DNA of 38,648 bases from positions 1 through 38,648 of IMG/VR virus record IMGVR_UViG_3300026311_000005, one strand, 5' to 3'. The position numbers were made by a program, and so were the translations under genes. The notes under the pieces were generated by a model. The model had not been told where the DNA came from. It made no database searches and saw nothing but the letters and a program-made list of their open reading frames with translations. Origin of the DNA: a virus. Shown here in pieces: positions 857 through 38,648 of the stretch. The first letter of the stretch is position 1; each line of letters starts with the position of its first letter.

Positions 857-2038
857 TCACGGTCTATATCTGTCGCGCCATTCGATGACATACTCGTCCG
901 TCCCCGCAATGCTCAGTTCCGCCGACTCTCCGGCCGGGACTATCGGGATCTCGGATATGGCGATGTGTCTCCACTGCTCGATTTTCAGGCTCGGTATGGA
1001 GATAGATGTCAGATCGCCGTCGGCGGCAATTCGGATATATGCGTTTTCCATTCCCTCGGCTTGAGGGACATAGATCATCATCTCCCTGCCAGTCGTCCAC
1101 CGCGGGCTCTGCGAATCGATCACGGTCTGCCACGAGGCTTCACCGTCGGTCGAAACGTCGATCGATGCTATGCCCTCCCCTGTCAGAGTGGGCCGGATGG
1201 TCAGCAGCAGACCGCCCTTGCGGATCGGGAAAACTCCGGGGAGATCATATATTGCATATCCGGACGTTGTGATCACAAGTTCCCCGTCGGATACTGATGC
1301 ATTCGATGACGATGACTTGTCGGCCGCGAACTTATCCCCGTCATCGAACATATCCTCATACAGTTGATATAGCTGACCGAATCTGTCCATTGTCAGCTCC
1401 TCATCGGACATGAGCGATGGAGCGACGAGGACGGACGCATCACCGATCGTGATTGTGACATCGGCCCCACCGACGACCGATAGCGAAAACAGGAACGCGT
1501 CCAGCGTCCCGTCATTCTGAATGTACGTAGGCGATGGGAATGGGAATAACATCTCCTCACCATACTCTGCCAGGAGGGCTTGGCCTGCCTCTGACAGCAG
1601 CGGAGCATACCCGAACGTCGGGGCCGCGGCATAGAGCTCCGCAGCCTCGGCCCAGAACTTAGCGGTCTTCCGGACGATCCCCGCCCCCCCGGCCGCTGGC
1701 TCGATCTCGGTATCTCCCACCGAGCCGTGGACGACCGCGAACCGATCAGCCCGGCCGAAATAGAGGCGGTCCGTCTCCTGATCCCCGGCGAGGTCATCGA
1801 TGAGAGCGGTGATCTCGTCCTCATCGCCTATCTGGTCGGCGAGGTCCGGCCGGAATATGAGGCCCGCCACCAGGGTGAGGGGATCGCGGCCCTCCTGCCA
1901 GACGACGGCCCGGTTGCCCCCGATGATGGGTGAGGTCTTCGCCCTGCGGCCCGCGCCTTTGGCCCGCCGGGGCCCCCACTCAACATAGGAGGAGATGTCG
2001 GTATCTCCGATCTGGATTTTTCGCGATATTGAAGTCAT
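857..2038 (-). CDS. Tail-associated protein (393 aa), function unknown
   Basis: ORF track; 4-nt overlap with the upstream tail gene; its stop is followed 9 nt later by the tail fibre ATG, with a GAGG motif spanning the stop. Confidence 0.4.
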   Translation of the reverse strand: MTSISRKIQIGDTDISSYVEWGPRRAKGAGRRAKTSPIIGGNRAVVWQEGRDPLTLVAGLIFRPDLADQIGDEDEITALIDDLAGDQETDRLYFGRADRFAVVHGSVGDTEIEPAAGGAGIVRKTAKFWAEAAELYAAAPTFGYAPLLSEAGQALLAEYGEEMLFPFPSPTYIQNDGTLDAFLFSLSVVGGADVTITIGDASVLVAPSLMSDEELTMDRFGQLYQLYEDMFDDGDKFAADKSSSSNASVSDGELVITTSGYAIYDLPGVFPIRKGGLLLTIRPTLTGEGIASIDVSTDGEASWQTVIDSQSPRWTTGREMMIYVPQAEGMENAYIRIAADGDLTSISIPSLKIEQWRHIAISEIPIVPAGESAELSIAGTDEYVIEWRDRYRP

Positions 2039-4611
2039 GGTTTCGTGATCCCTCTGACTGTGCCAGTTATATCCGAATTTTGCGATATCGCATATCTTCG
2101 AATCATCAACACCGATATCGTTTCGAGATTACCATCCAATCTGCAAAATTGTGATATATCTAAATCGCTAATAATATTCCCATATATTGGCTTCGCTGTA
2201 AGATACGCGCATCGCGCTCCGTTAACGGTGACGATGCAGTCCACCGCCGCATCTGGATTTTCTTGTGAAGTCGTCCCGGACGAAGATAACGAAAACAATA
2301 CCAACCCGGCATCGGTCCCAAAATCATCGGGCGTGAAATTCATCTCAAATTCATATCCTGAAATATATATATGACCACTCGCTGTTCCGATAGTGTTGTG
2401 TCCTGACAACATCAATCCATCTTCCCATGACGTGATGCACGATACCGACGTGGTGATTAATCCGCTGACATCCTCCCAATCTTTCCCCCAATTAGTCGAT
2501 CGGTATAATTCTCCGGCACTAGACGATGCGACCACAAATCCATTGCGGAACGCGTGAAGCTTTTGGATTGTCGTGGATGGGCTGTCATAGACTTCCGTCC
2601 AAGTTGTCCCGTAATCTGTCGATCTAAAAATCTTTCCACCGCGACTAGATCCTGCTAGTATTATACCAGACGTCCACCCTGCCAACGAATATATGAACAA
2701 TTCGGATGAATCGTAGACTTCCGTCCACGTCGCTCCATAATCTGTCGACCTGAAAATCTTTCCACTTGGGTACGTCCCTGCAAATCCGTGCCCCGTGGGG
2801 ATTGCACATGTCCCGAATATATATTGCTCGCTAGTATTATACACTTCGGCCCAAGTTTCTCCGTAATCCGTTGACCGCAAAATACGGCCATTTGCTGATG
2901 TCCCGGCAATTGCGTATCCATTTTCCCATGTAGACATTGCCCATATCTGCGATCCAGATGAATCGTAGACTTCCGTCCACGTCGCTCCATAATCTGTAGA
3001 CCTGAAAATCTTTCCGTTTGGGGAGCTTCCCGCAATTGCGTATCCATTTTCCCATGTAGCTATTGAAGTAATATTATGTTCAGGTGTTACATTTTTAGCT
3101 ACTGCCCAGGTTACCCCTCGATCCGTAGATCGAAAAATCTTCCCGCCCGCGCCTGAGCCACCGTCACCGGTCCCGGCTATTGCAATATCGTCGTTCTGAA
3201 ACACCCCAATTGATGCAATAGTTTTTTCTCCGGTACTATATATGTGTGCGAACATATTTGACTCAGAACTATATGAGGCCTCCCCCACCAACCTGTCACG
3301 ATACGCCTCTATCGCTCCGGTTTCGGATCGTTCCAAAAACGCCGTTAGCAGCGACAGATCTGGCGCTCCGACGACGGCCACCTCCCCTGCGATCGTCTCT
3401 CGAATAGATCGAATCTGAGCCGCGAATTTCTCACCGCCCTCGAGATCCAATTCGATCCAGTCTCCTACATCCATACCGCCTCGATACAGATCGATCTCTA
3501 CCGGCGCGTGTTGATGGATCGCATCGTAAAAGTCATCAGTTGCCTGGTCCAGGTGGCCCCACGGTGGAAGCCTGGCACCGGGGAGCTGGTAGGTAGTCTC
3601 AAGCCACGCCTGACCCGGACACAGCAGCTCGCCACGAGCGTACCGCACGCCCTCTATATTTTCCGCGCCGGCGCCCATCCCGACAACGCAAGAATACGGG
3701 ATATATCGAGGTGGCGAGATCTTCTGTAGACTGAAATCATCGCCGATGTGCAGCGACGCGTGGGGGGCCGACTCCGACCCCCTCGCCTTCGGAGTCGCCG
3801 AAATGTCCAGATAGACGTAATCCTCCTCTCTCCGAAAGACGACGTACTGCCCGGTCTCCCCGACGAGATCCCGGATCAAGCCCCAGATCTCGGTCTCGCC
3901 AACCTCGTACGGCGCTCCGACCTCGGAGTCGGTCGCCACGGTGCCTAGCCGGACGTGATTTTCTGCCCACCCGTCGGCGGCGATCACATCATAGATATCC
4001 CCCGTTCCGGCCCCTCGGACATAGAGGTTATCCCCCGAGATCGCATAGCGATAGGTCCCTCCTGCGATCGAGGATAGGGTGGACTCGGCGAGCTTGTGGC
4101 CGCCGTAATAGATATCGTGACCGGTGACGAGCGGTCCCCATCCCTCCAGAGTTCCCACGCCATCCGAATCCCATGACACGATCCCGGTGTCCTGACCGTC
4201 GCAGATCTTCGACCTGCTGAGCCAGAGGAGGCCCATGCAGTACTGAGTCGCCCCGGCCCCCTGTGGCGGGGCGTCGGAGGAGAAGATGTCGGATAGGGTG
4301 AGCCCGACGCCGCCGGGATAAATGATCTCTGGCGCGTATCGGCACTGGAGAAGGGCTTCGGCGGCGATGCAATCATACCGCCTCTGCCCTCCCACGGCGC
4401 TGTACTCGATAGAGACGACTGAGCCGATGAAGAGCACGTCCCCGGAATCCGAAACGGCCCGGACCCTCGCCCCCATTCGGATATGATCGATCTCCGAAGC
4501 GATGGACAGAGAATCGCCTAGATCGTTCTCCAGGGAGCGGAAGAGTTCCGGGTCGGAACCGTCGATGACGAACTCGGACGACTGTCCAGGATTCTGAAAA
4601 TATAGCATCAT
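2035..4611 (-). CDS. Large tail protein with a predicted Asp-box (BNR) beta-propeller domain, sialidase-like
   Basis: Seven repeats of the Asp-box motif S-x-D-x-G-x-T-W (RSTDYGATWTEV and variants); matching near-identical 60-bp DNA repeats around 2700-3020; N-terminal region paralogous to 4608..6803; start placed at the ATG at 4611 that overlaps the upstream stop (ORF track start 4668). Confidence 0.6.
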   Translation of the reverse strand: MMLYFQNPGQSSEFVIDGSDPELFRSLENDLGDSLSIASEIDHIRMGARVRAVSDSGDVLFIGSVVSIEYSAVGGQRRYDCIAAEALLQCRYAPEIIYPGGVGLTLSDIFSSDAPPQGAGATQYCMGLLWLSRSKICDGQDTGIVSWDSDGVGTLEGWGPLVTGHDIYYGGHKLAESTLSSIAGGTYRYAISGDNLYVRGAGTGDIYDVIAADGWAENHVRLGTVATDSEVGAPYEVGETEIWGLIRDLVGETGQYVVFRREEDYVYLDISATPKARGSESAPHASLHIGDDFSLQKISPPRYIPYSCVVGMGAGAENIEGVRYARGELLCPGQAWLETTYQLPGARLPPWGHLDQATDDFYDAIHQHAPVEIDLYRGGMDVGDWIELDLEGGEKFAAQIRSIRETIAGEVAVVGAPDLSLLTAFLERSETGAIEAYRDRLVGEASYSSESNMFAHIYSTGEKTIASIGVFQNDDIAIAGTGDGGSGAGGKIFRSTDRGVTWAVAKNVTPEHNITSIATWENGYAIAGSSPNGKIFRSTDYGATWTEVYDSSGSQIWAMSTWENGYAIAGTSANGRILRSTDYGETWAEVYNTSEQYIFGTCAIPTGHGFAGTYPSGKIFRSTDYGATWTEVYDSSELFIYSLAGWTSGIILAGSSRGGKIFRSTDYGTTWTEVYDSPSTTIQKLHAFRNGFVVASSSAGELYRSTNWGKDWEDVSGLITTSVSCITSWEDGLMLSGHNTIGTASGHIYISGYEFEMNFTPDDFGTDAGLVLFSLSSSGTTSQENPDAAVDCIVTVNGARCAYLTAKPIYGNIISDLDISQFCRLDGNLETISVLMIRRYAISQNSDITGTVRGITKP

Positions 4612-6803
4612 CGTAACTCCACCTGGAGACGTCTGCATCGTGTCACGCCGTCGCCCCTGCCACTCCAAATCTGGCAGTAGAGGTATATTCCTGCCTGGAG
4701 ATCATCAAGCTCCTGCTGAGTCCATGTTGCGCCGGAATAAGGATTAGTAATCCATTCATCCTCGAAGCGTTGATAGACACCGATAAGAGATCGTTGCGCC
4801 CCCCAATATACCGTACTGTGTGTTTTTATAAACGCTCTCGAATACCCGACATCCATACCACGTTCTAATATAGCATCATGGACAAGAACTACCTTGAAAT
4901 CGAATGATGGCTTAGCTTCGTTGCTGAGGTTCCAAAGGGCCGTGCCGGATGCTTCTGCCCCGCCAATGCGACCAGCGTCCGCCAAGATATAAATATCCCC
5001 TGTCAGCGTTGATGAGATCTTAGATCCGAGCGTTAGTGTCTTTATCGCGCTCTGCCCATATCTCCCGATGCCCCGGACGGTGATCGTGTACCCGAGCGTC
5101 TCCGAAAGGGTCCCCGTGGGGTCGGTGACGGCGATCTCCAGCGTCTCCTCGGTTCCATCGAGCGCGCACCACTCAGTGATGTCCAGCCCCTCGAAGATCG
5201 GATCTTTTCCCCAAGGCTGATGGGGGATGATCGCGATGACCTGGCCTGCTGGATAGGTGGTGTTGGTGATGGTGAGGGTCCACGTGACAGCGAGGTCAGA
5301 CTCGTCCGAGTCTCCGGGTGTCGTAGCCCTGAGATCGACCAGGATCTCGGCAGTGTCCCGGTCACTGGATGCCGTCGGAGTCCAGGATATAGAGCCCGTA
5401 GTCCCCGGACCGATGTTGTCGGTGGCCTCCTGATTCCCGAACGCCTGCCCCGCCCGCATGGCGGCGATTGCAGCCGACGCCTGTTTTTCGAGATACGCAT
5501 TTCTGGGGCTGGCATACTTTCCCCCGAGCCGGATCTGTCGGAGGGGCGACAGATCGCGGGATATCTCCGATATCTGAGCGGTGGCGATCTCCGAAGGCGA
5601 GATCTCTACATCGAGCCAGTCACCGGGCAGGAAGTAGTCGATCGCTGTTTCCAGGGAGATAAAATCCGCCTCGGAGACATCGCCCCATTCTGCATCAGCG
5701 ATATCCTCCAGTCTGCCTTTCGGGGACAGTCTCCCCTCCGAGACGTCTAACGTCTGCTCTATCCAGGGCCCTCTTTTCGAGAGATCCGCCTCTGTGTAAA
5801 TCACCCTAGACACCCCTGCCCCAGCCCCACGACAGATCAAGGCAGTCGGAGGGATATCTCTTGGCGCAGTTCGCTTGAGGCTGATATAATCGCCCGGCCC
5901 GATGGAGAACGCGCCGCCCGACGACGAGCCCCGGACCCACGGATTTATCGACCCGTCTAGGTACGTCAAATCTCCGACGTGCCGAAGTCGAAGATAGATC
6001 CCCATATCGAAAAGAAAATCGTGAATAATCTGCCAATAATTGTCATCGTCGCCGGAGACGTCCAGAGCCGCGAGGAGGTAGTCGCCTGATCTGTCCAGGT
6101 TGCCGAGCCGGAGCCCGGTATCCTTGAAGTTGTCGATGCAAACCGGCCCGAAATCACCGACACCTGCGCCATAGACATAAAGATCGTTATCTCGATAAAT
6201 CCTGTACGTTCCGCCGCTGATATCTCCGAGGGAGTCTACCTCAGTGCAGAGATGGCCGCCTACGTAGACGTCTTTCCCCGCCGTCCGAGGATGTGACCCC
6301 CAGTTGGCCCACTTCCAGACTCCAGCCGTTCGAGAGTCCGCTGTTAGCGGGAAGTAACTATGAGCCATCCAGATTAGGCCTGGCACGTACTGATCCGTTC
6401 CGGCTGATTGGCTGGGAGGATCGGACGACAGGACTTGGGCCAGCGTAAGCGCGGAATAGCCCGAGACGATGGCCGGCGCTCCCCATCGCATCAGGCCCCA
6501 CGGCACCCGGCTCTTCAAAATTTGAGGGATGGATATGCACTTGATTTTCAGGCATCCCTCAGTCTTCCCCGTGGCGGCGTTGTAGAATGTTGCCCCTTCG
6601 CGAGAGGCCGCTGCACCACGATAAATCGTGTGGCCGTTCTCGACCATCTTGAGCCACGACCGATCCCGAACGGGTGCCCGGTACGATACCTTGAACTCCA
6701 GATCCTCCCCCTTGTCGAAGTCTCGGTATTGAGTATGGCGGAGATCCATGATATCGATCTGATGATAGGTCCCAGTAGCGTCGGCGACGTAGACCTCTTG
6801 CAT
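4608..6803 (-). CDS. Large tail protein (731 aa), paralogous in its N-terminal half to 2035..4611
   Basis: ORF track; shared block GGTYR.Y.D..LYV.GAG.GD with the neighbouring gene; immediately downstream of the tape measure gene. Confidence 0.5.
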   Translation of the reverse strand: MQEVYVADATGTYHQIDIMDLRHTQYRDFDKGEDLEFKVSYRAPVRDRSWLKMVENGHTIYRGAAASREGATFYNAATGKTEGCLKIKCISIPQILKSRVPWGLMRWGAPAIVSGYSALTLAQVLSSDPPSQSAGTDQYVPGLIWMAHSYFPLTADSRTAGVWKWANWGSHPRTAGKDVYVGGHLCTEVDSLGDISGGTYRIYRDNDLYVYGAGVGDFGPVCIDNFKDTGLRLGNLDRSGDYLLAALDVSGDDDNYWQIIHDFLFDMGIYLRLRHVGDLTYLDGSINPWVRGSSSGGAFSIGPGDYISLKRTAPRDIPPTALICRGAGAGVSRVIYTEADLSKRGPWIEQTLDVSEGRLSPKGRLEDIADAEWGDVSEADFISLETAIDYFLPGDWLDVEISPSEIATAQISEISRDLSPLRQIRLGGKYASPRNAYLEKQASAAIAAMRAGQAFGNQEATDNIGPGTTGSISWTPTASSDRDTAEILVDLRATTPGDSDESDLAVTWTLTITNTTYPAGQVIAIIPHQPWGKDPIFEGLDITEWCALDGTEETLEIAVTDPTGTLSETLGYTITVRGIGRYGQSAIKTLTLGSKISSTLTGDIYILADAGRIGGAEASGTALWNLSNEAKPSFDFKVVLVHDAILERGMDVGYSRAFIKTHSTVYWGAQRSLIGVYQRFEDEWITNPYSGATWTQQELDDLQAGIYLYCQIWSGRGDGVTRCRRLQVELR

Positions 6804-9800
6804 CTAATGCCCTCCCCTGAGCCTGCCGACGTAAGCATCGCTAATCTCGATCTTCAGCTCTTCGGCCACTTCGCGGGCGATCTCCCTGGCGTCCCCGCCA
6901 CCGTAGACGGTTATCGGGGCGTTCACTGTGACGCCCCCACCCCCTCCCGCCGTAGCCACCGCCTGCTGAATCATGGGAAGAAGATCCCCGAGAGGGGCGA
7001 CCACTTCGGGCGTCCGGGCGTCCCCGACGACCGCCCGGACGGGAGACGAGATGATCCCGCCGGGGGCGAACGAGAGCCAACCACCCGGAGCAAGCGTGCC
7101 GTCGGCATAGTTTCCGCCGCTGGGTCCCCACGTATCCAGGACTCCGGGGTTCATGACCTCCAGCCAAATGGGCTTCGTGGTGGGGGCCATGATCTCTGCC
7201 TCCAGACGATCCAACTCGGTCATCGCGGGGGATATGTCGGCGAGGACGGGGGAGATTTTCTCCGTCTTGATGTCGCCCTCCAACTTTTCCAGCTCGGTAT
7301 TCGCCGCAGCCGGATCGAGTTCCAGGTCGACTTCGACTGCGTACTGGAAGTAATTTTGCGCTTCGTATCCTTCTTTGGCCCCCTGACCGGGCCCCGCCCA
7401 TCCTTCCGTCGGGCCGATGTAAGACCTGGCGAACATGTCCTCCTGGGCTTCCTGCCACGCGCCGAATCCAGACCACCAACCGGGCATAATACTGGTCGTC
7501 GTTTCGGCGGAAGCTTTTTCCAGTCCGGCCTTCCCCGCCTTCGTGAAGTATTTGGCTATGGCGTCGATGGCTTCAGGATCGATCTCTTCCGGGATCACCG
7601 ATAGCAAGAAATCTTTGGCCAGTGATACCGTACTTTTCTCGTAATCCCAGGGGTTCGTGATGATTCGATAGGCTGCTTCTGCATCGGAGCCGAGTTCGCC
7701 GACGATCTGGCTCAGAGAATACAGATCGTCGGCGAACTCGCGGAGTCCCTTCTTTGTTTTTGATCCGTCGTATTCCTCCCAGAAGAGGGCCTCTCGGAGC
7801 GCGGAAGCTTCTGGTGATACTTTTGCCGTAACTTCTGCGATGTAAGGCTCGCCGGCGTCGATATGCTTTTGAAGCTCCGCGTTTATTCCAGTTGTATCTA
7901 TATTATTCGCTATATTGTAAGACCGCTGCTCCAGCATCCCTACAAGACGGCCCCACCAACTGAGGGCGGCCTGGCCCCCAGCCTCCTCGAACGCCTCGGG
8001 ATCGGCTAGCTTGAGATCTGCTAATTGAGTTTCGATATCAGAAGCTTCTGACGCCGTGATCAGCCCGTCCTCGAATGCCGCCCAACCGTCTTCTGCGACG
8101 TCTCCGAGTAGATCGGCCATCTTGTCGCCGAGCCCGCCGACGGCGAACGGCTTTTCGAGGGCCTCGCTAAACGCAGTTTCAAATTCCGCCTGGAGCCGTT
8201 CGGCTTCGGCTTCGAGGTCAAGCTTCAGTTCGGCTTGCGCCCGCATCTCGGCGGCCTCGCCGTGCTTCCCAAGAGCGTCTAACAGAGCAGCTTCGCGCTC
8301 GACGGGATCAATGAGGGCCCAAAGTCCGGGGAGCTGTGTCCGGATAGCGTTCATGGCAGCCTGAGGTGAATCATATGCCAGCCCAGTGAGCGATTTCCCG
8401 TTGATGTGGACCGCCCATTCCAATTGGGCATCGGGAGTATGTATTATTTCAATCGTATCCGACCCGGCGGATACCGTCCCCGTCCTGGAGAATCGCGGGA
8501 CCGTCTTCTCGTGGTAGTCGGCCCACCGCTTCATTTTGTCGTTCCAGGCATTCATGTAGCCGGAGGCAGCGGCGGAGCCAGCCCCCTCGCTGTCGACGTC
8601 TTTTAATTCCTTCTCGATACTGACACCGAGATCTGAAATGATATCGTTGAACGCAGCCAGATACTCATCGGCTGACATGTTGCCAGCGTTGGCGTTCAAG
8701 TCGGCCATCTGGCGGGTAAACTCAGTACCAAACTCTTTTGATCCGGATAAAACGCCATCGAGAGCAGTTATATATTCGTCTGCTGATATTTCTCCAGACT
8801 CAAACATCTCGGTGATCGGGCCGATGACGTATTCAGTAGATTCTCCTAATTGAGCATGGACATCTGAAATTGAGTTGATAGCATCCTGGTATTGAGTCGC
8901 CGATATCTCGCCTTGAGAGAACGCATCTTGGATCGGGCCTGCGATCGAATCAAAATCAGATCCAAGAGAAGTGACGGCGTTGGCAACGTCGTCCATTATG
9001 TTTTTGTACTCTTCCGCCGAAACCGTACCGTCCTCGAATGCTTGGGTGAGAGGTTCAAGAGCCTCGTCAGCCCCGTCACCAAGCTCCTCCGAAACGGTGG
9101 TCATGTCCTCCAGGATGGAGATGTAATCTTCAGCGGAGACCGTGCCGTTCTCAAATCCTTCGGTCAGGGGGCCGATCATGTCGGCGGCGGCGTCTCCGAC
9201 CTGCGAATAAATCTCAGATACGCTTGATAAGGATTTTTTGTACTGATCAGTTGTCAGTTTCCCCGTCGTCGCGAACTCTTGGAGCGAATCCATAAGTCCG
9301 GTAGTCGGACCTTTCATGCCAGCGCTCGATACCTCTTTCAATCCGCTGAGGTATTCTTGAGCGGTGAGCTTCCCAGCATCTCTGGCGGCCTGGACGTCGG
9401 CCATATCCTTCACCCACTCGTCGCCGATCTTAATCTGACCGCCCGCCGATTTTAGACCGTCGCTCAGCGCCCCAGTGACATCTCCAACGAACGAACCGAC
9501 AAGACCTCTGGTTTCAGTTCCGCCAGAGAGGACTTCACCTACCTTATTATCGAGCTTTTCTAGTCCTTCGTATAGTTCATATGCCCCTCCGGTAAGCCAT
9601 TGCCATCCCTGTGTTCCGAGACCGATGAGGGCTTGCGTGATGTCGTTCACGCCTTTCATCATCTGAGTGAGATATGGCAACAAAACGGCACCGATTGAGG
9701 TTGCAGCGACAGATATCTTTCCCTTGAAAATGTCTATCTGAGCATTTAGAGTTTCCTGAGACTTGGCGTAAGCTTCGTTCAGGCTGGAAGCGTTCTCCCA

Positions 9801-10925
9801 CGCGCTCGCGCCTGTCTCCAGCGCCGCATCGAGGCCCTCGATCTCCTTTGTGACCGGATCGACCTTCCCAACTAGCATCCCCATCATCTGGCCGCCCGTG
9901 GCCCCGAATTTCTGGAGGGCCTGCCCCTGCTCCTCGATTGGAAGCTCGGATATAGCGACGGCGAGCTCCTGGACGGTCCCGATGGCATCTTCTCGGATGG
10001 CCTCCTGGAACTCCGTGGCGTCCATGTCCAGCATCGACGAGATGCCGCTCTTGTCGTCCCTCATCATATAATTGAGGGCATCTTTCAGTGACTCGCCTGA
10101 GGTCTCGGCAGTCATGCCGAATGCCTGGAGCTGACCGATGAGAGCCGCCCACTCCGAAAGCTGATCTGGCGACGGTTTCAGCATCGCCATCTGAGCCGAT
10201 ACCTTTTTCATGCCGGTGACGATCGATTCTTCAGAAGTCGCCATCGAGTCGGCAAGATCGTTGATGGTGGACCCCATACGGTTGCCGAACTCGGTCCAGG
10301 TCATCTCGGCGGGCTTCACAACCGATCCGATTTTTCCAATAGATTCGCTTGCAGCGTCCGCCGACATGCCCCAGGCAGACGACATCTTGAGAATCGTCTC
10401 GGTATAATCGGCGATCTCTTCCGGCGCTATTCCCATCCGCCCGGCTCCGGCGGCGGCTCCGGCTATGGACTCCATCGATGCGCCAGTTTCGCCTCGGATG
10501 GCGAGGAGATCGGAGGAAAGTTTTGAGAACCCTGCTTCAGTGGTGTTCGTGACTTTTTGGACATCCACCATGAGGTCCTGCCACGTGGCGGCGCTAGAGA
10601 CGCATTTACCGAGCCCGACGCCGATCACGGCGACAGAAGCCCCGATGCCTAGAAGAGCGATCCCGGCGGGTCCGAGGGCGGTGGCGAAGGTCCCGGCAGC
10701 CTGTCCCAACATTCCAAACTGGGATGTCATCCCCGTGACGAGCTGGTTGCCGAGCTGCTTTCCAACGTCGCTGAAGTTCCCTCCCGTTAGAGACGCCTTG
10801 AGCCCGCCCGTTATGTTGGTCCCGGCATTGTGCATCATGCCAGGGATCGAGCCCAGGCTCTTCTCCAGGGGGCCGAGATCGGCCCCCACCTCTACAAACG
10901 CCGCGCCGAGTTTTTCCGAGACCAT
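6804..10925 (-). CDS. Tail tape measure protein (1373 aa)
   Basis: Very long, hydrophobic N-terminal segments, tandem repeats of about 35 aa (G.ISA.EY...) encoded around 8820-9230, glycine-rich C-terminus, position after the chaperone pair; GGAG about 9 nt upstream of the ATG. Confidence 0.85.
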   Translation of the reverse strand: MVSEKLGAAFVEVGADLGPLEKSLGSIPGMMHNAGTNITGGLKASLTGGNFSDVGKQLGNQLVTGMTSQFGMLGQAAGTFATALGPAGIALLGIGASVAVIGVGLGKCVSSAATWQDLMVDVQKVTNTTEAGFSKLSSDLLAIRGETGASMESIAGAAAGAGRMGIAPEEIADYTETILKMSSAWGMSADAASESIGKIGSVVKPAEMTWTEFGNRMGSTINDLADSMATSEESIVTGMKKVSAQMAMLKPSPDQLSEWAALIGQLQAFGMTAETSGESLKDALNYMMRDDKSGISSMLDMDATEFQEAIREDAIGTVQELAVAISELPIEEQGQALQKFGATGGQMMGMLVGKVDPVTKEIEGLDAALETGASAWENASSLNEAYAKSQETLNAQIDIFKGKISVAATSIGAVLLPYLTQMMKGVNDITQALIGLGTQGWQWLTGGAYELYEGLEKLDNKVGEVLSGGTETRGLVGSFVGDVTGALSDGLKSAGGQIKIGDEWVKDMADVQAARDAGKLTAQEYLSGLKEVSSAGMKGPTTGLMDSLQEFATTGKLTTDQYKKSLSSVSEIYSQVGDAAADMIGPLTEGFENGTVSAEDYISILEDMTTVSEELGDGADEALEPLTQAFEDGTVSAEEYKNIMDDVANAVTSLGSDFDSIAGPIQDAFSQGEISATQYQDAINSISDVHAQLGESTEYVIGPITEMFESGEISADEYITALDGVLSGSKEFGTEFTRQMADLNANAGNMSADEYLAAFNDIISDLGVSIEKELKDVDSEGAGSAAASGYMNAWNDKMKRWADYHEKTVPRFSRTGTVSAGSDTIEIIHTPDAQLEWAVHINGKSLTGLAYDSPQAAMNAIRTQLPGLWALIDPVEREAALLDALGKHGEAAEMRAQAELKLDLEAEAERLQAEFETAFSEALEKPFAVGGLGDKMADLLGDVAEDGWAAFEDGLITASEASDIETQLADLKLADPEAFEEAGGQAALSWWGRLVGMLEQRSYNIANNIDTTGINAELQKHIDAGEPYIAEVTAKVSPEASALREALFWEEYDGSKTKKGLREFADDLYSLSQIVGELGSDAEAAYRIITNPWDYEKSTVSLAKDFLLSVIPEEIDPEAIDAIAKYFTKAGKAGLEKASAETTTSIMPGWWSGFGAWQEAQEDMFARSYIGPTEGWAGPGQGAKEGYEAQNYFQYAVEVDLELDPAAANTELEKLEGDIKTEKISPVLADISPAMTELDRLEAEIMAPTTKPIWLEVMNPGVLDTWGPSGGNYADGTLAPGGWLSFAPGGIISSPVRAVVGDARTPEVVAPLGDLLPMIQQAVATAGGGGGVTVNAPITVYGGGDAREIAREVAEELKIEISDAYVGRLRGGH

Positions 10926-11030: not shown

Positions 11031-11432
11031 TCACCCCTCCGGCACCGGATGACCGAGGCGACGCGCCTTAGCGATCGCCTTTTCCCTCAAGCTTTTTTCA
11101 GCCTTCACCCCCTCTCCTCCAGGGAAGAGGTCAGCGAAGGACTTCGGGTGTTTGCCGAATAGATTTCCGACGCACCTTGAGATATCCCAGGCGAGGATCT
11201 GCTGGTTCCGGGCGTCGGCCTCCTGCTGCCGCCTATGGCGATAGAGGAGAGGGAGCAGATCGTTTAGGCAGTATTCGGCGGCTTCGTCTGGGCGGATGCC
11301 GAGTTCGATGAAGGCGATCCGAGAGCGCCAAGCTTTTTGGCTCTCCGCTCCAAGTCCTTCATCGTTTCCTGGATGATCTCCAACGTCTCCGCCTTCAGCT
11401 TTGCCTTCTGAAGCTCGTCGAAGGTAGTCCAT
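11031..11432 (-). CDS. Tail assembly chaperone, -1 frame extension (T-like), probably expressed only as a frameshift fusion with 11264..11779
   Basis: Open frame offset by -1 from the upstream ORF and overlapping it by about 170 nt, ending 105 nt before the tape measure start. Confidence 0.45.
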   Translation of the reverse strand: MDYLRRASEGKAEGGDVGDHPGNDEGLGAESQKAWRSRIAFIELGIRPDEAAEYCLNDLLPLLYRHRRQQEADARNQQILAWDISRCVGNLFGKHPKSFADLFPGGEGVKAEKSLREKAIAKARRLGHPVPEG

Positions 11433-11779
11433 CTCTCCTGCATCGAGGCAAGAATAAAAGGGTTTTCCGCAAGCGCCAGAGATTCGAGGAGCGCCCGGTT
11501 GATTTCGATCGTCGTTAGGCCCTCCTCGTCAATCTTGGAGACAAGTTCATCTCGGCTCAAACCAGAGCTATGTTCTAGGGCCATTATTCGAATCTTGACA
11601 TCCGAATCGACGAAGGTGCTCAGGATTTCAAATGCCCCTGGCAACCGACCGCCTACAAGTACCTTCTGCCCCCTGAGGTATTCTCTCGCCTCTTCCTCGA
11701 ATCCCTCGGAAGCGAGGATGCCCCATTTCAGATCGATCGATCCGAGCTTTACGGTACGAAGTCCTTTTGCTTTTGTCAT
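11264..11779 (-). CDS. Tail assembly chaperone, upstream frame (G-like)
   Basis: Position between the major tail and tape measure genes; 3' end overlaps a second open frame; start moved to the internal ATG at 11779, which has GGGAGA 7 nt upstream (ORF track start 11809 lies inside a hairpin). Confidence 0.5.
   Translation of the reverse strand: MTKAKGLRTVKLGSIDLKWGILASEGFEEEAREYLRGQKVLVGGRLPGAFEILSTFVDSDVKIRIMALEHSSGLSRDELVSKIDEEGLTTIEINRALLESLALAENPFILASMQERWTTFDELQKAKLKAETLEIIQETMKDLERRAKKLGALGSPSSNSASAQTKPPNTA
11333..11339 (-). other. Putative -1 ribosomal slippery site CAAAAAG (mRNA sense) in the chaperone overlap
   Basis: Zero-frame codons GCC AAA AAG at plus 11333-11341; both frames are open here. 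Confidence 0.35.
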
Positions 11780-11799
11780 GATATTTCTCCCTCGTTTCT

Positions 11800-11823
11800 G
11801 GGGGGTCATAAGTATCGCCCCCC
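11800..11823 (-). terminator. GC hairpin (GGGGGG, 12-nt loop, CCCCCC) after the major tail protein gene; possible attenuator
   Basis: Read directly; no clear U-tract follows, so the function is uncertain. Confidence 0.2.
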
Positions 11824-11938: not shown

Positions 11939-12934
11939 TCACTCCACTACCCGATACATCGGATGTTTAGCTCCCGAAATAGTCAGAATAGCTTTTGTCA
12001 GGTCGTCCGGACCTCCCGGCCAGTCTACACTTTCGATGTAGCCGAACCCCACGCACATGATCCCGGAATCCTCCACATCATAGAACTGGAAGAGGAGCCG
12101 GACTCCATCCAGGTCTTCCCAATCAATCGCACCCAGACCCCCGGATAAGGCCGTCTCCTCCAGAGCCGCGACGATACCGGCGCCAGTCTCGCCGGAGACC
12201 ACTTCAGCCCGGACCTTCAGAGCCCGAACGTCTACATCCGCGTTAAGCGCCTGGACGACGTCTTCGGCGGTGGACGTGATCGACCCATCAGTGACGGCCA
12301 GAGTCACATCGATATCGGTGCCGGTGACGGTGACGGCGATGGTCCCGGTGCCGCCGGGGTTGGTCATGGTGAGGGTAATCGAGTTCCCGGCCACCCCGCC
12401 CTCGAAATGTATTAGCCGAATGTGGCTATTGGCGTTGCCCCCGGTCGTCGTGAGGGTAGCGCAGATCCCAGCGTGTAGAGTGTCGATGGTAGCGTTCCAG
12501 TCTTTGATCGTTGGGAACCTCTCCACCGCCTCGTCGCCGTAGCACGTCACGTCTTCGAATGACTTGAGCCTTTTGTACGTTCGGTTCTTACATGCTGATA
12601 TCTGAGTAGGGGAGAGGTACTTCCCGCTTGCGCACTGAACAACGTCGGTGCCATCGAGGGCCGAGCTTAGAACAATATATCCGGCACCGTACCAGATCTC
12701 GCTCGGAGTCAGAGTCGAGAACTCCCCAACACCACCATCTTGCCATTCGAAGACCGGCGCCTCCGAATCCAGAAGTGCCCGCTTATCGGCGTCGGTGATC
12801 CGATAGACCGTATATCTGGCGTATCCCTGGTCGGTGAGGTCTACCTCCTCCATTGCTTCATCACTATATGACGACCCGGCCCCCGAACCGTAAAAGACGG
12901 CTACATAGGAGCCCGGCGTCGGGGCGAGTGCCAT
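11939..12934 (-). CDS. Putative major tail protein with a C-terminal Ig-like (Big_2-type) domain
   Basis: Position upstream of the chaperone pair; C-terminal segment rich in T/V/D (TVTGTDIDVTLAVTDGSITSTAEDVV); start at the ATG at 12934, preceded by GGTGAGGTG (ORF track start 12943 is GTG). Confidence 0.45.
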   Translation of the reverse strand: MALAPTPGSYVAVFYGSGAGSSYSDEAMEEVDLTDQGYARYTVYRITDADKRALLDSEAPVFEWQDGGVGEFSTLTPSEIWYGAGYIVLSSALDGTDVVQCASGKYLSPTQISACKNRTYKRLKSFEDVTCYGDEAVERFPTIKDWNATIDTLHAGICATLTTTGGNANSHIRLIHFEGGVAGNSITLTMTNPGGTGTIAVTVTGTDIDVTLAVTDGSITSTAEDVVQALNADVDVRALKVRAEVVSGETGAGIVAALEETALSGGLGAIDWEDLDGVRLLFQFYDVEDSGIMCVGFGYIESVDWPGGPDDLTKAILTISGAKHPMYRVVE

Positions 12935-12944
12935 CTGTACCACC

Positions 12945-13325
12945 TCACGTTATAACGGCCCCGCCGGAAGGCGCGAAGGTTACATTCATGACCTGCTCAC
13001 TGGCGGGATCGCCGGAGATCTCACAGTCCTGGACGTAGGCCGTGATGGTGAACGTTCGGGACCCCTTCACCGCGACGTATACAGAGGCGTCGCCAGAGTC
13101 GTAGTCGTCCAGGATGTCCTGTTGCCCGACATCGGCTGGATCATAGATCAGGACGGCGGAGAAGTCTACATCCTTGATCGTTGGGAACCTCGCCACGGCG
13201 GTATCTTCGTCTGCGGTTACTTCTACTATGGTTCTCTTCGGCCTGATATTGAGCGTTCGGATGCCCAACACCGTCACCGAATCGATGGTCAATCTCTGCG
13301 TTCCTACTTCGGGTGCCAATACCAT
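12945..13325 (-). CDS. Small tail tube-related protein (126 aa), partial paralogue of 11939..12934
   Basis: Shares the RFPTIKD motif and an identical 18-nt stretch with the neighbouring gene. Confidence 0.35.
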   Translation of the reverse strand: MVLAPEVGTQRLTIDSVTVLGIRTLNIRPKRTIVEVTADEDTAVARFPTIKDVDFSAVLIYDPADVGQQDILDDYDSGDASVYVAVKGSRTFTITAYVQDCEISGDPASEQVMNVTFAPSGGAVIT

Positions 13326-13344: not shown

Positions 13345-13719
13345 CTAAGAATCCGCTATGCAGCGGATGACCCTAAAATCGATCATGAATACGTGCCGCC
13401 CGTTCTCGTCCACATAATGATCGGGGTGGCGGCCCTCCCAGATCATCGCCACTGAATGACCGAACGCCGTTTTTTTGTGGAGCGCGTCCCGGATCGCCAG
13501 GGCGTCGGTTTGCGCCGTCTCCAGGGACGCCCTCCTCACCTGGATCTGAACGCGAGGCTTCTCGATATCGCCCCCGCTCACGATATACCCGCTCCCCCCC
13601 GCCGGGAAGATGGCTATCTGCGAGGCGCTGGATTCGTCGAAGCCGTATGCTCGGATGTTGGAATATCCGGCGGCGGTGAGGGCGTCGGCCACATCCTTGA
13701 CGACCGGATCCATGGTCAT
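13345..13719 (-). CDS. Putative tail completion or tail terminator protein (124 aa)
   Basis: Size and position between the head-tail joining genes and the tail tube genes; weak resemblance only. Confidence 0.3.
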   Translation of the reverse strand: MTMDPVVKDVADALTAAGYSNIRAYGFDESSASQIAIFPAGGSGYIVSGGDIEKPRVQIQVRRASLETAQTDALAIRDALHKKTAFGHSVAMIWEGRHPDHYVDENGRHVFMIDFRVIRCIADS

Positions 13720-21237: not shown

Positions 21238-22620
21238 TTATGAGCCGGGCATGAACATTTCGCCCGCGTTCTGAGTTCGGAGCATTTCAAGCGCGTCCTG
21301 AAGCGACGCGCCTTCGAGATGGTAGAGCATCCGGAGCGCTTGTTCGTCCCAGATGAGGCCCTGGGACTTGAGGAGCGCCACATTAGCGACCGTCTCCTTG
21401 AAGTCCTCGGGGAGGCCGTCTTGCCATTGAATCCCGATCGATTCCAGCTTCTCGGCCCCGGTGGACCCCCGCGCGGCTTCAAATGCCGTGAACGTCTGGA
21501 GCTCGGCTCGAATGATGGGATCGACGACGAGCTTGAGCCGGTCCACCTTCTTCAAGGGGACGAAAAGCATCAATCGGAGAGCCGTCCCGGATATTTGGGC
21601 TCCGAGTTCAGCAGGCTCAAAACAAGCGGCGCAAGTCTCGGATATGATGTAGAGCTGCCGGATTAGGGCGTCAATTTCGGCGAACGCCCCGGAGAGCTGC
21701 CCGTCCCATGTGACGTACCCGGGCGCGGCTTTGCCTTCCTCCACCGCGAAAGCCTTCCGCTTCCCGTCGAAAACCCAGGCCCCCGATTCGGTCTTGATGA
21801 ACGCACCCGAATCCTCGTTCGCGTAGAACATCGGCTCGGAGTGGACGTCCAGGATCCGCCCTATTCGCGTCAAACGGGCTTCCATCCGCTTGACGATCGA
21901 ATCCAGGTCTTTGTAATCGTCGATCAGTTTCCCGCTTGAGGTGTGTAAGTTCCGAACCTCAAATATTAGAGGTTGATCGACGCCCGTCTCTTCGATCGTC
22001 GGGGCCTCCCCCCCGCCCATGATATAGCCCGAAGCCGAGACGACGTACTCGCGGGTCTCGATTTGGCCGGGGCGGTGGATGCGAACTCGGAGCTTTCGCT
22101 GCTGGATGTGATCGACGTATCCGAGATCTTCGAGCCAGGCGACGACGTGCTCTTTGGTTCGCCCGTATTCATCGACGACCCCGAAATATCGGCCGGGGTG
22201 GACGACCTGCAGCTTGACCATCCCATCCTCCATATAGCCCTCGATGAAACCATGCCCGAACCGCGACACGTCGATCTGGCGAGCGTGCTGGAGCTTCCAG
22301 TATTCGGTTCGGTCGATGAAGGCCGAAAGGTACTTCTGCTTTTTGGATTCGGGGTCTTCGTCTCCGATGGCGCGTGGGATCTCCCCGAACAGGAAGTCGG
22401 CCCAGAGCGTCGATATTCGGCGATGTAGGTTGAGGATGAGAATGATTTTGTTGTACTCGGCCGTCTGGCTGGAGAAGAGGTCGAGAAGCGCCCGGAAGAC
22501 TTTCGTGTGCTCCCCATCGAAAAGGTGTTCGTTCTCTTCGTACCTCTGGAGCCGGTCCTTTTCCGATTCCGGTGGCCAGGGTTGGCCGACGGCGAGCGCG
22601 GCTTCAAGATCTCGAATCAT
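21238..22620 (-). CDS. Portal protein (460 aa)
   Basis: Size and position directly after the large terminase with a 4-nt overlap. Confidence 0.8.
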   Translation of the reverse strand: MIRDLEAALAVGQPWPPESEKDRLQRYEENEHLFDGEHTKVFRALLDLFSSQTAEYNKIILILNLHRRISTLWADFLFGEIPRAIGDEDPESKKQKYLSAFIDRTEYWKLQHARQIDVSRFGHGFIEGYMEDGMVKLQVVHPGRYFGVVDEYGRTKEHVVAWLEDLGYVDHIQQRKLRVRIHRPGQIETREYVVSASGYIMGGGEAPTIEETGVDQPLIFEVRNLHTSSGKLIDDYKDLDSIVKRMEARLTRIGRILDVHSEPMFYANEDSGAFIKTESGAWVFDGKRKAFAVEEGKAAPGYVTWDGQLSGAFAEIDALIRQLYIISETCAACFEPAELGAQISGTALRLMLFVPLKKVDRLKLVVDPIIRAELQTFTAFEAARGSTGAEKLESIGIQWQDGLPEDFKETVANVALLKSQGLIWDEQALRMLYHLEGASLQDALEMLRTQNAGEMFMPGS

Positions 22621-27444: not shown

Positions 27445-27535
27445 CAAGGATAGTGAGCCCTCAAAGTATTAATATCTTATCCTTCGGTTTATGTCGTAAA
27501 CTACTTATATAACGAATACAACTAAGGGATATGGC

Positions 27536-27672
27536 GTGTCGCGTCGAGTCGAGTCAGGTCCGGTCGTGGCAGTCGCGTCGAGTCAGGTCGGGTCGGGTCG
27601 GGTCGTGGCAGTCGAGTCGCGTCAGGTCATGTCGAGTCGCGTCGAGTCCAGTCGGGTCCGGTCGTGGCAGTC
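27536..27672. repeat. Pentanucleotide array 1: about 27 tandem NNGTC units in three blocks, each ending in GTGGCAGTC
   Basis: Read directly: GTGTC GCGTC GAGTC GAGTC AGGTC CGGTC GTGGCAGTC ...; 5-bp periodicity, six GAGTC units. Confidence 0.8.
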
Positions 27673-27696
27673 TAACCAAAATGGAGTTGAGAAAAA

Positions 27697-28332
27697 GTGG
27701 CAGCAAAAGCAAAAGCGCCCGCCCAGAGCGGGCCTATAACCCTGAAAAGGATCGAGTTGGAAACGGTTGTCGTCCCGATCGTGGGGACCTCTGAGCTGAT
27801 CGTTCACAAGTGGAGCGATAAAGCCAAGCGCCAGATGCTAGACAAGCAGATGAAACCGGGGACCAGATCAAAGAAGGAAGCAAAAGACCCGGTAGCCGAC
27901 TACGAGGCGTCGAAATATAAGACGCCCGAAGGCAAAGATGCGATGGTGACGACCGCCTTCAAGAAGGCGATGGTTGACGCCCTCCGCTACTTCGACGGTG
28001 TGAGTATGGTCCTGGGAAAGACCGCCTTCTTTGTAGAGGGCGAGTACGTCGAGCTGGAGGGCGAGCCCCGGATGAGAGAAGACATGGTGAGGCTGGACGG
28101 CGGTGGGTCTGCTGACATCCGATACCGGGCCGGGTATCCTGAATGGAAGACGAAGCTCACCATCACCTACGCAAAGGATATCCTCACTATGGAGTCGGTC
28201 CTGTCCCTGGTAGAAGCAGCGGGACAGACCCAGGGCGTTGGCGAATGGAGGCCGTCGTCCAAGAAGACCACCGGTCCCTTCGGTCGGTTCACGATCGACA
28301 CGTCCCGGAAAATTGAGGTGATCACTGCATGA
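27697..28332 (+). CDS. Hypothetical protein (211 aa), first gene of the repeat-flanked plus-strand cassette
   Basis: ORF track; GTG start with GGAG about 11 nt upstream; no recognisable motif. Confidence 0.5.
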   Translation: MAAKAKAPAQSGPITLKRIELETVVVPIVGTSELIVHKWSDKAKRQMLDKQMKPGTRSKKEAKDPVADYEASKYKTPEGKDAMVTTAFKKAMVDALRYFDGVSMVLGKTAFFVEGEYVELEGEPRMREDMVRLDGGGSADIRYRAGYPEWKTKLTITYAKDILTMESVLSLVEAAGQTQGVGEWRPSSKKTTGPFGRFTIDTSRKIEVITA

Positions 28333-28853
28333 CCAAAATGGTATATGCCTGGAGAGAGGGGCGGAGCGCCAGCCCCTACCTTTCCAACGTATCCCCCCAG
28401 GTGGTCGGTGAAGAGCTGGAGAAGGTCCGAGAACAGGGGGGGGGGATGATCTTTCCCCGTGCCGTCATCGATCACGCCCGACCATCCGACTCGCCCCTCC
28501 ATTCATGCTTTGAATGGAACGACACGGAAGCCGCCGAGAAGTTCCGAATCGTCCAGGCGAGGGGGGTCATCAAGTCTGTCGAGATCGTCGAGATCAAAGG
28601 CAAACCACTCCCCTCCCCCATCGTAGCCAACGTCAGCGTGACGCGCCGGGCCGTTGTGCCGGGCGATCCAAGGATCAGGTATTATGAGAGCACTCCTCTC
28701 GCCCTCCAGGACCCGGAGCTTCGGGACCAGGTACTCCAGAAGGCTCTTAGGGAGCTGGAATCCTGGCGGGAACGATACGACGCCTTTACCGAGTTCAGTC
28801 TGGTCTTCGGCTCGATAGAAGCCATCCAGAAAAAGATAAGATCTTCAGCCTGA
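28329..28853 (+). CDS. Hypothetical protein (174 aa), second gene of the cassette
   Basis: ORF track; 4-nt overlap with the upstream gene. Confidence 0.5.
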   Translation: MTKMVYAWREGRSASPYLSNVSPQVVGEELEKVREQGGGMIFPRAVIDHARPSDSPLHSCFEWNDTEAAEKFRIVQARGVIKSVEIVEIKGKPLPSPIVANVSVTRRAVVPGDPRIRYYESTPLALQDPELRDQVLQKALRELESWRERYDAFTEFSLVFGSIEAIQKKIRSSA

Positions 28854-28868: not shown

Positions 28869-29025
28869 GCGGTCGGGTCAGGTCGTGTCGGGTCCGGTCG
28901 AGTCGAGTCGTGTCAAGGCAGTCGGGTCCGGTCGGGTCGAGTCATGTCTCGTCACGTCGAGTCAAGTCAAGGCAGTCGCGTCGTGTCGTGTCATGTCACG
29001 TCGTGTCGCGTCTGGTCGTGGCAGC
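28869..29025. repeat. Pentanucleotide array 2: about 26 tandem NNGTC units in three blocks punctuated by AAGGCAGTC, AAGGCAGTC and GTGGCAGCC
   Basis: Read directly; same unit type and orientation as array 1. Confidence 0.8.
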
Positions 29026-29060
29026 CGTGGCGTGTCTTGCTGCCACTATTCTATTTTTAT
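29017..29060 (+). terminator. Putative intrinsic terminator of the plus-strand cassette
   Basis: Stem GTGGCAGC, 13-nt loop, GCTGCCAC, followed by TATTCTATTTTTAT. Confidence 0.45.
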
Positions 29061-37721: not shown

Positions 37722-38648
37722 CTACATCACCCTCGTCGGTACCCTGACCTCGAACGACTCCACGAGGAAGTCGCTAGTGAGATTATTCGAGCTGGGCGCT
37801 ATCCTCGATATCGCCAGCCTCACCCTTTGACCGGCAGACCAACCAAGGGAGCTGACGGTCGCCGTCCAGGTGTAGATGACGGGCCGGTTCTGGGTGGCGT
37901 TGCAGGCTAGGTCGCCTGAGTCGCTGGCGGTCGAGTAAGCAGTATCGACAGACCCTGCGCCGCTCGACAGGACCAACTGCTTCACCCTGAACTTAACGTT
38001 CTTGCCGGCGGCCGCCGTCTTGGCCCACCCCACGAGGGCGAACGTTATGGTTCCCCCAGTGTTGATGTCGGCCGGCACCACGAAGGCCGGCGCCTGGGCC
38101 GTCTCCTCGGTAGTGTCATCGAATGCAAGCGTAACCACCGCCTGGTTCGTCCCATCCAATAGGTATTCCTCGGGCGAGTTGGCGGCGTCAAGGTTGAATG
38201 CGGTGGGCGGCAGCACGAGGATCCTCGTGCTGTAGAGATACGTCCAGGCCGGATCGTCTGCACCCATCGACAGAACGGAGTACTGGGAGCCTTTGGCGAG
38301 CCTGGCGGCGTCACCGGATCCCCGGTATAGCAGGTCTCCCCGGGTCGTGAGGATCTGGTTCAGAAGGGTCGCCAGGGTGGCCCAGGCCGGATCGTCTGCA
38401 CCCATCGACAGAACGGAGTACTGGGAGCCTTTGGCGAGCCTGGCAGAAGTTCCGTCCGAGCGGTATAAGAGATCTCCCCTTGTGGTCAGGATCGTATCTA
38501 GTATCGCCGCCGGAGTCGAAACCCCTCCGAACAGAGGCCGGTCGTCCCGGTAAATGTAGCTGTTGGAGCCGTCGTCGGCGTCATCGATATGAACCGATCC
38601 CACCCGATGATAGACCAGGCAGATCGGGACGGTATTCGCGACGAGAGC
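37722..38648 (-). CDS. Tail fibre protein, C-terminal portion (38522-38648 duplicates 1-127); contains a tandem 46-aa repeat
   Basis: ORF track 37722..38603 with no stop upstream to the window end; internal repeat ILTTRGDLLYR...ARLAKGSQYSVLSMGADDPAW occurs twice; last large gene of the tail cluster. Confidence 0.6.
   Translation of the reverse strand, partial: ALVANTVPICLVYHRVGSVHIDDADDGSNSYIYRDDRPLFGGVSTPAAILDTILTTRGDLLYRSDGTSARLAKGSQYSVLSMGADDPAWATLATLLNQILTTRGDLLYRGSGDAARLAKGSQYSVLSMGADDPAWTYLYSTRILVLPPTAFNLDAANSPEEYLLDGTNQAVVTLAFDDTTEETAQAPAFVVPADINTGGTITFALVGWAKTAAAGKNVKFRVKQLVLSSGAGSVDTAYSTASDSGDLACNATQNRPVIYTWTATVSSLGWSAGQRVRLAISRIAPSSNNLTSDFLVESFEVRVPTRVM
38522..38648. repeat. Terminal direct repeat, copy 2 (identical to 1-127)
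   Basis: Same comparison as above. Confidence 0.9.

Follow-up and report, generated by a model that had tools for sequence, protein, structure and literature searches.

A probable G/GT-type tail assembly chaperone pair in a siphovirus-like virus and a candidate -1 frameshift site conserved at synonymous positions

A -1 frameshift that joins the tail genes G and T has reportedly been described for lambda and other long-tailed phages by Levin (1993) and by Xu, Hendrix and Duda (2004, 2013, 2014), and the corresponding predictions for haloarchaeal siphoviruses are said to go back to Pietila (2013) and Sencilo (2013). Here we analyse a locus that appears to follow the same strategy in the IMG/VR virus record IMGVR_UViG_3300026311_000005, a stretch of 38,648 nucleotides that was considered at its full length and is called the window in the following. 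The G/GT frameshift is conserved among long-tailed double-stranded DNA phages, and in lambda the G part of the fusion binds the tape measure protein and the T part the tube protein (PMC5009743). Similar g-t -1 frameshifts have been predicted for the haloarchaeal siphoviruses HVTV-1 and HCTV-1, -2 and -5 (PMC5009743, PMC8211752).

Comparison of the window with related loci strongly supports the presence of a G/GT-type tail assembly chaperone pair whose downstream frame would be expressed by a -1 frameshift, and we consider it very probable that a programmed -1 frameshift exists here. The main shift site is likely to lie at 11465..11456, about 125 bases upstream of the heptamer CAAAAAG that had been proposed in an initial annotation of the window. 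To the complete reading, a G/GT pair with the slip at 11465..11456, we assign a probability of roughly 0.65. The frameshift event, its efficiency and the functions of the proteins are inferred by comparison. The following features of the locus are needed for the argument:

11779..11264, minus strand: G, a putative tail assembly chaperone of 171 amino acids (aa), zero-frame open reading frame (ORF) ending at TAA 11266..11264
11528..11031, minus strand: open stretch of the -1 frame ORF, relative to the frame of G
11456..11031, minus strand: -1 segment that would be read after the shift, 141 codons plus TGA 11033..11031, stop-free and conserved in frame -1
11330..11031, minus strand: conserved T domain (WRSRIAFIELGIRPDE...RRLGHPVPEG) in frame -1, conserved in all loci including the distant ones
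11779..11031, minus strand: predicted GT fusion as constructed, 249 aa, composed of 108 aa in frame 0 and 141 aa in frame -1
11465..11456, minus strand: most probable -1 shift site GAA AAC CCU UUU, G codons 105-108, with A_AAC_CCU at 11465..11459 and C_CCU_UUU at 11462..11456
11339..11333, minus strand: heptamer C_AAA_AAG of the initial annotation, a possible secondary or incidental site, in the correct frame and not conserved

The mechanical ORF call gave an overlap of ORF 11809..11264 (181 aa) with ORF 11432..11031 (133 aa), both on the minus strand. The placement of these two overlapping frames between the tail tube gene and the tape measure gene, as stated in the initial annotation, was borne out by the ORF geometry and by Pfam and PHROG matches of the tape measure protein (TMP); both the geometry and the identities of the neighbouring genes are direct observations. 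To follow the pair beyond the window, the DNA was compared across about 17 distinct related loci, which stem from different samples and assemblers, with G identities ranging from 99% down to undetectable. A -1 ORF spanning the G stop was present in every related locus examined, always in frame -1, and without exception its end lay directly ahead of the TMP gene or of a small insert. Kept in every relative, this ORF arrangement is far beyond chance. In the window, the -1 frame is open from 11528 and not merely from ATG 11432, giving a shift-permitting stretch of 88 codons, twice that of the initial annotation, and in almost every locus it is open 60-94 codons ahead of the G stop. The overlap lacks any ATG, GTG or TTG in 6 of the 13 loci (the window has ATG 11432), which leaves the downstream frame without a conserved start of its own and with a -1 overlap with the 3' part of G. 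Among 5.8 billion protein clusters, the T ORF had been called as a gene only once.

Analysis of codon differences in the T-only region revealed a synonymous fraction of differing codon pairs of 0.50 in frame -1 vs 0.08 and 0.07 in the other frames, and within 11263..11031 no frame but -1 codes. The arrangement of the two frames is thus conserved together with coding selection on frame -1. Since the -1 ORF is universal, is start-less in nearly half of the loci and is selected in frame -1, T is to be regarded as a genuine coding sequence that ribosomes must reach out of the G frame, and the G/GT kind of -1 frameshift proposed initially is strongly supported. The -1 segment itself consists of a conserved PF.SCL...EL..LRR stretch, a variable linker rich in G, D and E, and the T domain. 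Regardless of where in the overlap a -1 shift falls, the fusion measures 249 aa, or 259 aa if counted from the non-conserved ATG 11809; the length of about 265 aa given initially was not recovered.

Mosaicism in this part of the genome is strong, as the T region (window 11512-11031) is 93-100% nucleotide-identical to that of loci L016, L018 and L013 with G only about 40% protein-identical. In addition, T and TMP are separated in several relatives (L001, L002, L011, L018 and L025) by an insert of about 0.8-1 kb that holds small ORFs on the opposite strand; one insert-bearing relative is 99% identical in G, and the window is without that insert.

Scanning the full stop-free stretch for zero-frame heptamers across the family led to the motif GAA AAC CCT TTT at 11467..11456, in which two canonical X_XXY_YYZ heptamers overlap in the zero frame, 64 codons before the G stop. 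The motif belongs to the conserved E(N/D/S)P(S/F) sequence of G, at which a zero-frame C_CCT is common to the whole family. The pattern xxC CCT T(C/T)T was invariant in 14 of 14 aligned loci, 13 of them with xxC CCT TCT and the window with TTT. CCT is the rarest proline codon (48/368, 13%), and TCT accounts for 13% of the serine codons. The invariance extends across lineages with 30-45% protein identity and therefore indicates a constraint at the nucleotide level.

Three further signals, all of them observed directly, start at this motif. Synonymous constraint, determined as codon identity where the amino acid is identical in 75 divergent sequence pairs, amounted to 0.38 for G codons 1-103, reached 0.74 for codons 104-122 (0.96-0.97 at codons 106-111) and was 0.50 and 0.71 for codons 123-149 and 150-171, respectively. 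The mean BLOSUM62 score in frame -1 was 0.07 for G codons 60-103, 3.03 for codons 107-123, 0.74 for codons 124-149 and 1.45 for codons 151-171. Stop depletion was assessed by resampling synonymous codons with the codon usage of the genome, and the count covers the 13 correctly scored of 14 loci, with L038 left aside as the scan had placed the motif wrongly there. Upstream of the motif, -1 stops were broadly as expected (e.g. 4 seen vs 4.4 expected; outlier L039 with 15 vs 5.95), and from the motif to the T domain 0 were seen vs 1.4-1.9 expected per locus, with P(0) of 0.13-0.2 per locus. The last -1 stop lies only 1-2 codons ahead of the proline codon in L016, L038 and L039. The heptamers of distant relatives are likewise seen directly: the homologous position reads ACA AAA AAC CCT (A_AAA_AAC) at "ATKNP" in L041 and ACG GGA AAC (G_GGA_AAC) at "DATGNY" in vir515, 60 codons before the G stop, and L040 has A_AAA_AAG 53 codons before its stop, at a position for which homology is not established.

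According to the proposed mechanism, most ribosomes would translate G to its stop, yielding 171 aa, and a minority would slip back by 1 nt and continue in frame -1 to TGA 11033..11031, yielding the 249-aa GT with the T domain. At CCU (Pro107) and UUU (Phe108), the -1 slip would occur onto CCC UUU, with UAU as the next codon. The predicted junction is ...LALAENPF/YSCLDAGEMDYLR..., and the peptide ALLESLALAENPFYSCLDAGEMDYLR would correspond to a shift at 11465..11456. GT would then be composed of G(1-108), the conserved segment YSCLDAGEMDYLRR, an acidic/glycine-rich linker of about 25 aa that overlaps the coding sequence of the C-terminal G helices, and the T domain. Both products would share residues 1-108 and continue with alternative C-terminal parts, which in G are two helices and a tail. 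In relatives with C_CCU_UCU, P-site tRNA-Pro slippage from CCU to CCC would be the likeliest event. By analogy to lambda, contact with the tape measure protein may fall to the shared G part and recruitment of the tail tube protein to the T part. In the structural model of G, the core (residues 8-105) has predicted local distance difference test (pLDDT) scores of 83-96 and the helices after residue 107 score 67-77; given this drop past the core, the modelled fold suggests that a shift at 11465..11456 falls on a domain boundary.

The heptamer favoured initially, CAAAAAG at 11339..11333, does lie in the overlap and in frame as C_AAA_AAG, but fares less well as a shift site, being missing or non-slippery in several close and distant relatives and common by chance. 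It reads GCC AAA AAG in the zero frame, which is near-canonical only. Were the frameshift real and located here, GT would consist of G residues 1-149 plus 100 aa with the junction ...RRAKK/AWRSR..., an explanation that we consider unlikely. The position has its merits, as the frame is correct and the heptamer adjoins the conserved tryptophan of the T domain, ending 3 nt before this first conserved codon. Moreover, 5 other lineages have A_AAG, A_AAA or G_AAA_AAA no more than 2 codons away from this position, tetramers of the A_AAG type are among the known minimal -1 sites (PMC5009743), and A_AAG GAA has been proposed for the capsid gene of a methanogen virus (PMC11375127). Aggregated statistics also favour frame 0 before and frame -1 after the heptamer; a frame switch at CAAAAAG deduced from such region-averaged values was dropped after the finer scan of the stop-free stretch. 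Against the site, re-pairing of the P-site from AAA to CAA is mismatched, and the heptamer is absent or non-slippery in L039 and in the following loci, given with the zero frame at or near the same position:

L011: GCC AAG CGG
L025: GCC AGA AGG
L034: ACG AAA GCC AAA ATC
L024: GCC AGG CTG
L027: GCC CGG ATG
L038: GCC AGA ATG

L011 (Ga0265294_10131323), which is 96% identical in G, provided the first sign that CAAAAAG is dispensable. The region is rich in lysine and arginine, where A-runs are expected, and the 8697 in-frame codons of the genome contain 40 relaxed heptamers N_XX_YYY_Z (Y = A or T), or about one per 217 codons, so that the heptamer alone is no more than chance would give. An identical in-frame CAAAAAG is present in the gene at 21238..22620 (portal position; no Pfam match), and AAAAAG was seen 14 times vs 7.6 expected. 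What decides between the two sites is that a shift at CAAAAAG would leave unexplained the -1 frame that is stop-free 42 codons further upstream in the 13 correctly scored loci, the synonymous constraint from G codon ~104 onwards and the family-wide invariance of the rare-codon motif C CCT TCT, and that the canonical heptamer pair at 11465..11456 sits exactly where these constraint signals start. Thus, CAAAAAG is probably not the shift site, although C_AAA_AAG, lying inside the stop-free stretch, could act as a minor one.

The same observations bear on the remaining explanations. Weak -1 slippage at several sites of a 65-codon stop-free stretch, both candidates included, could in principle sum up to the needed amount of GT, and such a distributed process would be in line with the conserved length of the open -1 frame, with A-rich sites near the junction that differ among relatives and with the lack of a detected stimulatory structure. 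We regard it as improbable, since synonymous conservation sets in sharply and the rare-codon motif is invariant, both of which indicate one defined place, at which distant relatives have canonical heptamers. Still less probable is internal initiation at the NTG created by the conserved tryptophan of G (ATG 11432 in the window), which would release a free T of 133 aa without any frameshift. The clade of the window does have an ATG at this position with AGGAG before it, a TTG is found at the same place in 5 loci, and the conserved synonymous region 104-122 might be read as an initiation region. However, 6 of 14 loci have CTG at this codon, namely those without any ATG, GTG or TTG in the overlap, the spacing between the Shine-Dalgarno (SD) sequence and the ATG is only 2 nt in the window, and the peak of synonymous conservation lies 6-11 codons upstream of the NTG, with the -1 frame open and conserved from the proline codon onwards. 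In addition, the lambda model requires the G part for T to connect the tape measure with the tube (PMC5009743), and a free T would lack this part. That no recoding takes place at all, the -1 ORF being a non-functional by-product or the result of an assembly indel in a single gene, has a very low probability in our view. G and T match no known family, but about 17 independent contigs of varied sample and assembler origin show the same two-frame layout, frame -1 is under purifying selection, and the 3' part at 11263..11031 codes in this frame and in no other.

Several points weigh against a G/GT pair with its shift at 11465..11456. Most relatives carry C_CCU_UCU instead of a canonical X_XXY_YYZ heptamer, and we know of no documented case of C_CCU_UCU as a shift site. 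A position 64 codons before the G stop is unusually far upstream for lambda-type systems. In the linker (codons 124-149), conservation of the frame -1 residues is poor, and the case for its translation comes only from the missing stops and from synonymous conservation in modest excess. The codon and BLOSUM pair counts derive from related sequences and are not independent, so that Fisher p-values are overstated; the effect sizes are nevertheless large, and synonymous constraint, -1 similarity and stop depletion are signals of different kinds. Downstream of either candidate site, no stimulatory RNA structure (fold z-scores of -0.14, 0.76, 0.15 and -1.0) and neither consensus structure nor covariation was found, and the shift region gave no Rfam match. 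Comparison of G with the Pfam and PHROG tail assembly chaperone (TAC) families and with solved TAC structures revealed no sequence or fold similarity to known chaperones; such absence of similarity to described chaperone families is usual for these proteins. Finally, all support for the pair and its shift site is comparative inference.

Other ideas were considered and set aside. A candidate SD-like stimulator in the window, GGAG, stands 3 nt ahead of CAAAAAG, but this spacing is not kept consistently by relatives. A pause at rare arginine codons at the junction (CGG, AGG, AGA) was dismissed, as CGG is the commonest arginine codon in the genome, and transcriptional slippage was dismissed as the A-runs are merely 5-6 nt long. 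A DNA-motif scan of viral contigs for more family members returned known members and chance matches only.

The conserved start of G is ATG 11779 with the SD sequence GAGGGAG, and the N-terminus M(T/S)KAKGLR is found in all homologues; the upstream ATG 11809 reads AAG in relatives. Because ATG 11779 and not ATG 11809 is the conserved start, we take G to be 171 aa long. Relatives of G are few; 6 clusters were found in a set of 5.8 billion, and 22 representatives in one of 1.84 billion. G has no Pfam, PHROG or PDB family match, and a PDB profile search gave nothing relevant; T has no Pfam or PHROG match. One of 10 remote G relatives showed a weak PHROG 'tail protein' match (E 0.0027).

All genes of the tail region are carried by the minus strand, in the 5'->3' order tail terminator, two tail-tube-fold proteins, G, -1 ORF and TMP, so that the G and -1 ORF pair sits between the tail tube gene and the tape measure gene. 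The neighbours of the pair are:

13719..13345, minus strand: tail terminator, Pfam Phage_tail_terminator_6 (1.1e-7)
13325..12945, minus strand: putative second tube-like protein, small (126 aa), weak match to PHROG 158 (major tail protein, E 0.008)
12943..11939, minus strand: tail tube protein of 334 aa that has no sequence-family match and contains an inserted domain (about 110 aa)
10925..6804, minus strand: TMP, 1373 aa, Pfam TMP_3 (4.5e-20), PhageMin_Tail (2e-18) and PHROG 28 (1.4e-29)

The two tube-like genes lie back to back, and the 126-aa and 334-aa proteins share the motif A(V/R)xRFPTIKD (RFPTIKD). Such a small-plus-large pair of tube genes is also present in vir515 and all relatives. 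The inserted domain of the 334-aa protein covers residues ~162-269; in the counterpart from vir515 the same domain is N-terminal and hence permuted (2e-12), and the distant homologue P0101 carries Pfam PF02924, the domain of the lambda head decoration protein D. In all, 73 homologues of the tube protein were obtained. Upstream of G, the intergenic stretch 11934-11780 on the minus strand is 88-93% identical even where the G protein is only about 40% identical. It contains a G6-N12-C6 hairpin (GGGGGG...CCCCCC) at 11823-11800, directly before the SD sequence of G, and a second hairpin (GGGAGAGGGGTTCCCTC) follows the tube gene immediately; in other subgroups, this place upstream of G is taken by different hairpins. 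The hairpin region upstream of G may be a terminator or attenuator that sets the ratio of tube to chaperone/TMP expression.

With regard to the host, the window represents an uncharacterised virus lineage that may infect methanogens. The lowest E-value matches of TMP are a Methanosarcinales virus (vir525) and a Halorubrum virus, vir515 is the second-best match of TerL and shares the gene layout, the samples are from bioreactors and digesters, and one relative was binned as Pacearchaeota. Against an archaeal host, the best matches of the capsid are phages of Firmicutes. Searches for host clues in the window gave no tRNA genes, no near-identical phage record and no genome-contig matches.

Most non-structural ORFs of the window are without a Pfam match. 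An exact 127-nt direct repeat occupies positions 1-127 and 38522-38648, and the window is therefore taken as a complete genome of 38,521 bp, either as a circular assembly or terminally redundant. Degenerate repeats with a 5-nt period (..GTCNNGTC.., with GTGGCAGTC as punctuation) form two arrays, at 27535-27703 and 28874-29057, which flank the sole plus-strand gene block (27697..28853) and could be origin iterons or protein-binding arrays. A 359-aa protein (17405-18484, minus strand) contains the second domain of Mtd, a target fold of diversity-generating retroelements (DGR; 4.7e-13). In L040 (1-364), a reverse transcriptase (RVT_1) belongs to the same module as the Mtd-domain gene; within the window, neither a DGR template/variable repeat pair for this gene nor a reverse transcriptase was found. 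Four 126-nt tandem-spaced repeats at 2565-3041, within the minus-strand gene 2035..4668, correspond to BNR/Asp-box repeats of an 877-aa protein downstream of TMP, a probable tail protein of the receptor-binding or sialidase-like kind. Inside ORF 37722..38603, a 63-nt sequence is repeated perfectly in direct orientation (38244-38306 and 38382-38444, 138 nt apart).

The G/GT strategy is ordinary in kind and is extended here to uncharacterised, highly mosaic siphovirus-like viruses from anaerobic digesters. Unusual features are the predicted position of the shift, which entails about 190 nt of dual coding, and the family-wide use of the non-canonical C_CCU_UCU. We tentatively propose a possibly methanogen-infecting lineage in which the tail chaperone shift might be set by the invariant non-canonical C_CCU_UCU (C_CCU_UUU in the window), 55-66 codons before the G stop, without a detectable RNA stimulator and maybe through P-site tRNA-Pro slippage, with about 190 nt of dual coding and alternative C-terminal modules; this specific combination is a possibility on which we would not yet rely. 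Should this hold, the natural -1 shift motifs would gain a new member, perhaps one peculiar to archaeal ribosomes, and the G/GT systems an atypical architecture. For archaea and their viruses, very few -1 frameshift sites have been verified by experiment (PMC8211752), a scarcity that bears on the present candidate only if the host is archaeal. The T region is unannotated or mis-called in relatives, being blank in the GenBank record of vir515 and covered by called opposite-strand ORFs in L002, and GT is best annotated as a join with a -1 shift. C_CCU_UYU is a candidate shift site conserved at synonymous positions, and this relocated motif is the part most worth testing. The heptamer nearest the stop within an ATG-defined overlap can mislead, and synonymous-site conservation together with stop depletion locates the site better.

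Among described systems, lambda G/GT shares with the window a gene pair flanked by the major tail (tube) gene and the tape measure gene, a downstream ORF in frame -1 without its own start, a slippery heptamer in the zero frame and two products, predicted ones in the window, with a common N-terminal part; sequence similarity to other examples is absent, as commonly seen among phages. In lambda, only a few codons separate the shift from the G stop; here the shift would occur 64 codons before it, with long alternative C-terminal parts, and at C_CCU_UUU / A_AAC_CCU as opposed to G_GGA_AAG in lambda. In systems of the lambda type, G and GT are made at a fixed low ratio, are needed for tail assembly and are absent from virions. 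The same gene order as in the window is found in vir515 (Caudoviricetes sp., BK063672, host Methanosarcinales, bioreactor), with a small major tail protein, a tube-like protein of about 333 aa, a G-like ORF, a -1 ORF reaching to the TMP start, and TMP. Its TerL is 33% identical and its T-like region weakly similar (E 0.004), whereas its G is without detectable similarity and the frameshift is not annotated in the record. For HVTV-1 and the HCTV viruses, as for the window, the -1 frameshift of the tail chaperone was predicted from sequence alone, in this case in viruses of archaea, and their heptamers G_GGA_AAC and A_AAA_AAC are those of the relatives vir515 and L041; their hosts are archaeal, whereas the link of the window virus to archaea is weak. 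In the Methanobrevibacter virus MSTV1, the shift concerns the major capsid gene, adds an Ig-like domain and uses another site, but it is likewise a sequence-predicted -1 frameshift in a structural gene, here of a methanogen virus and at a minimal A_AAG-type site (PMC11375127).

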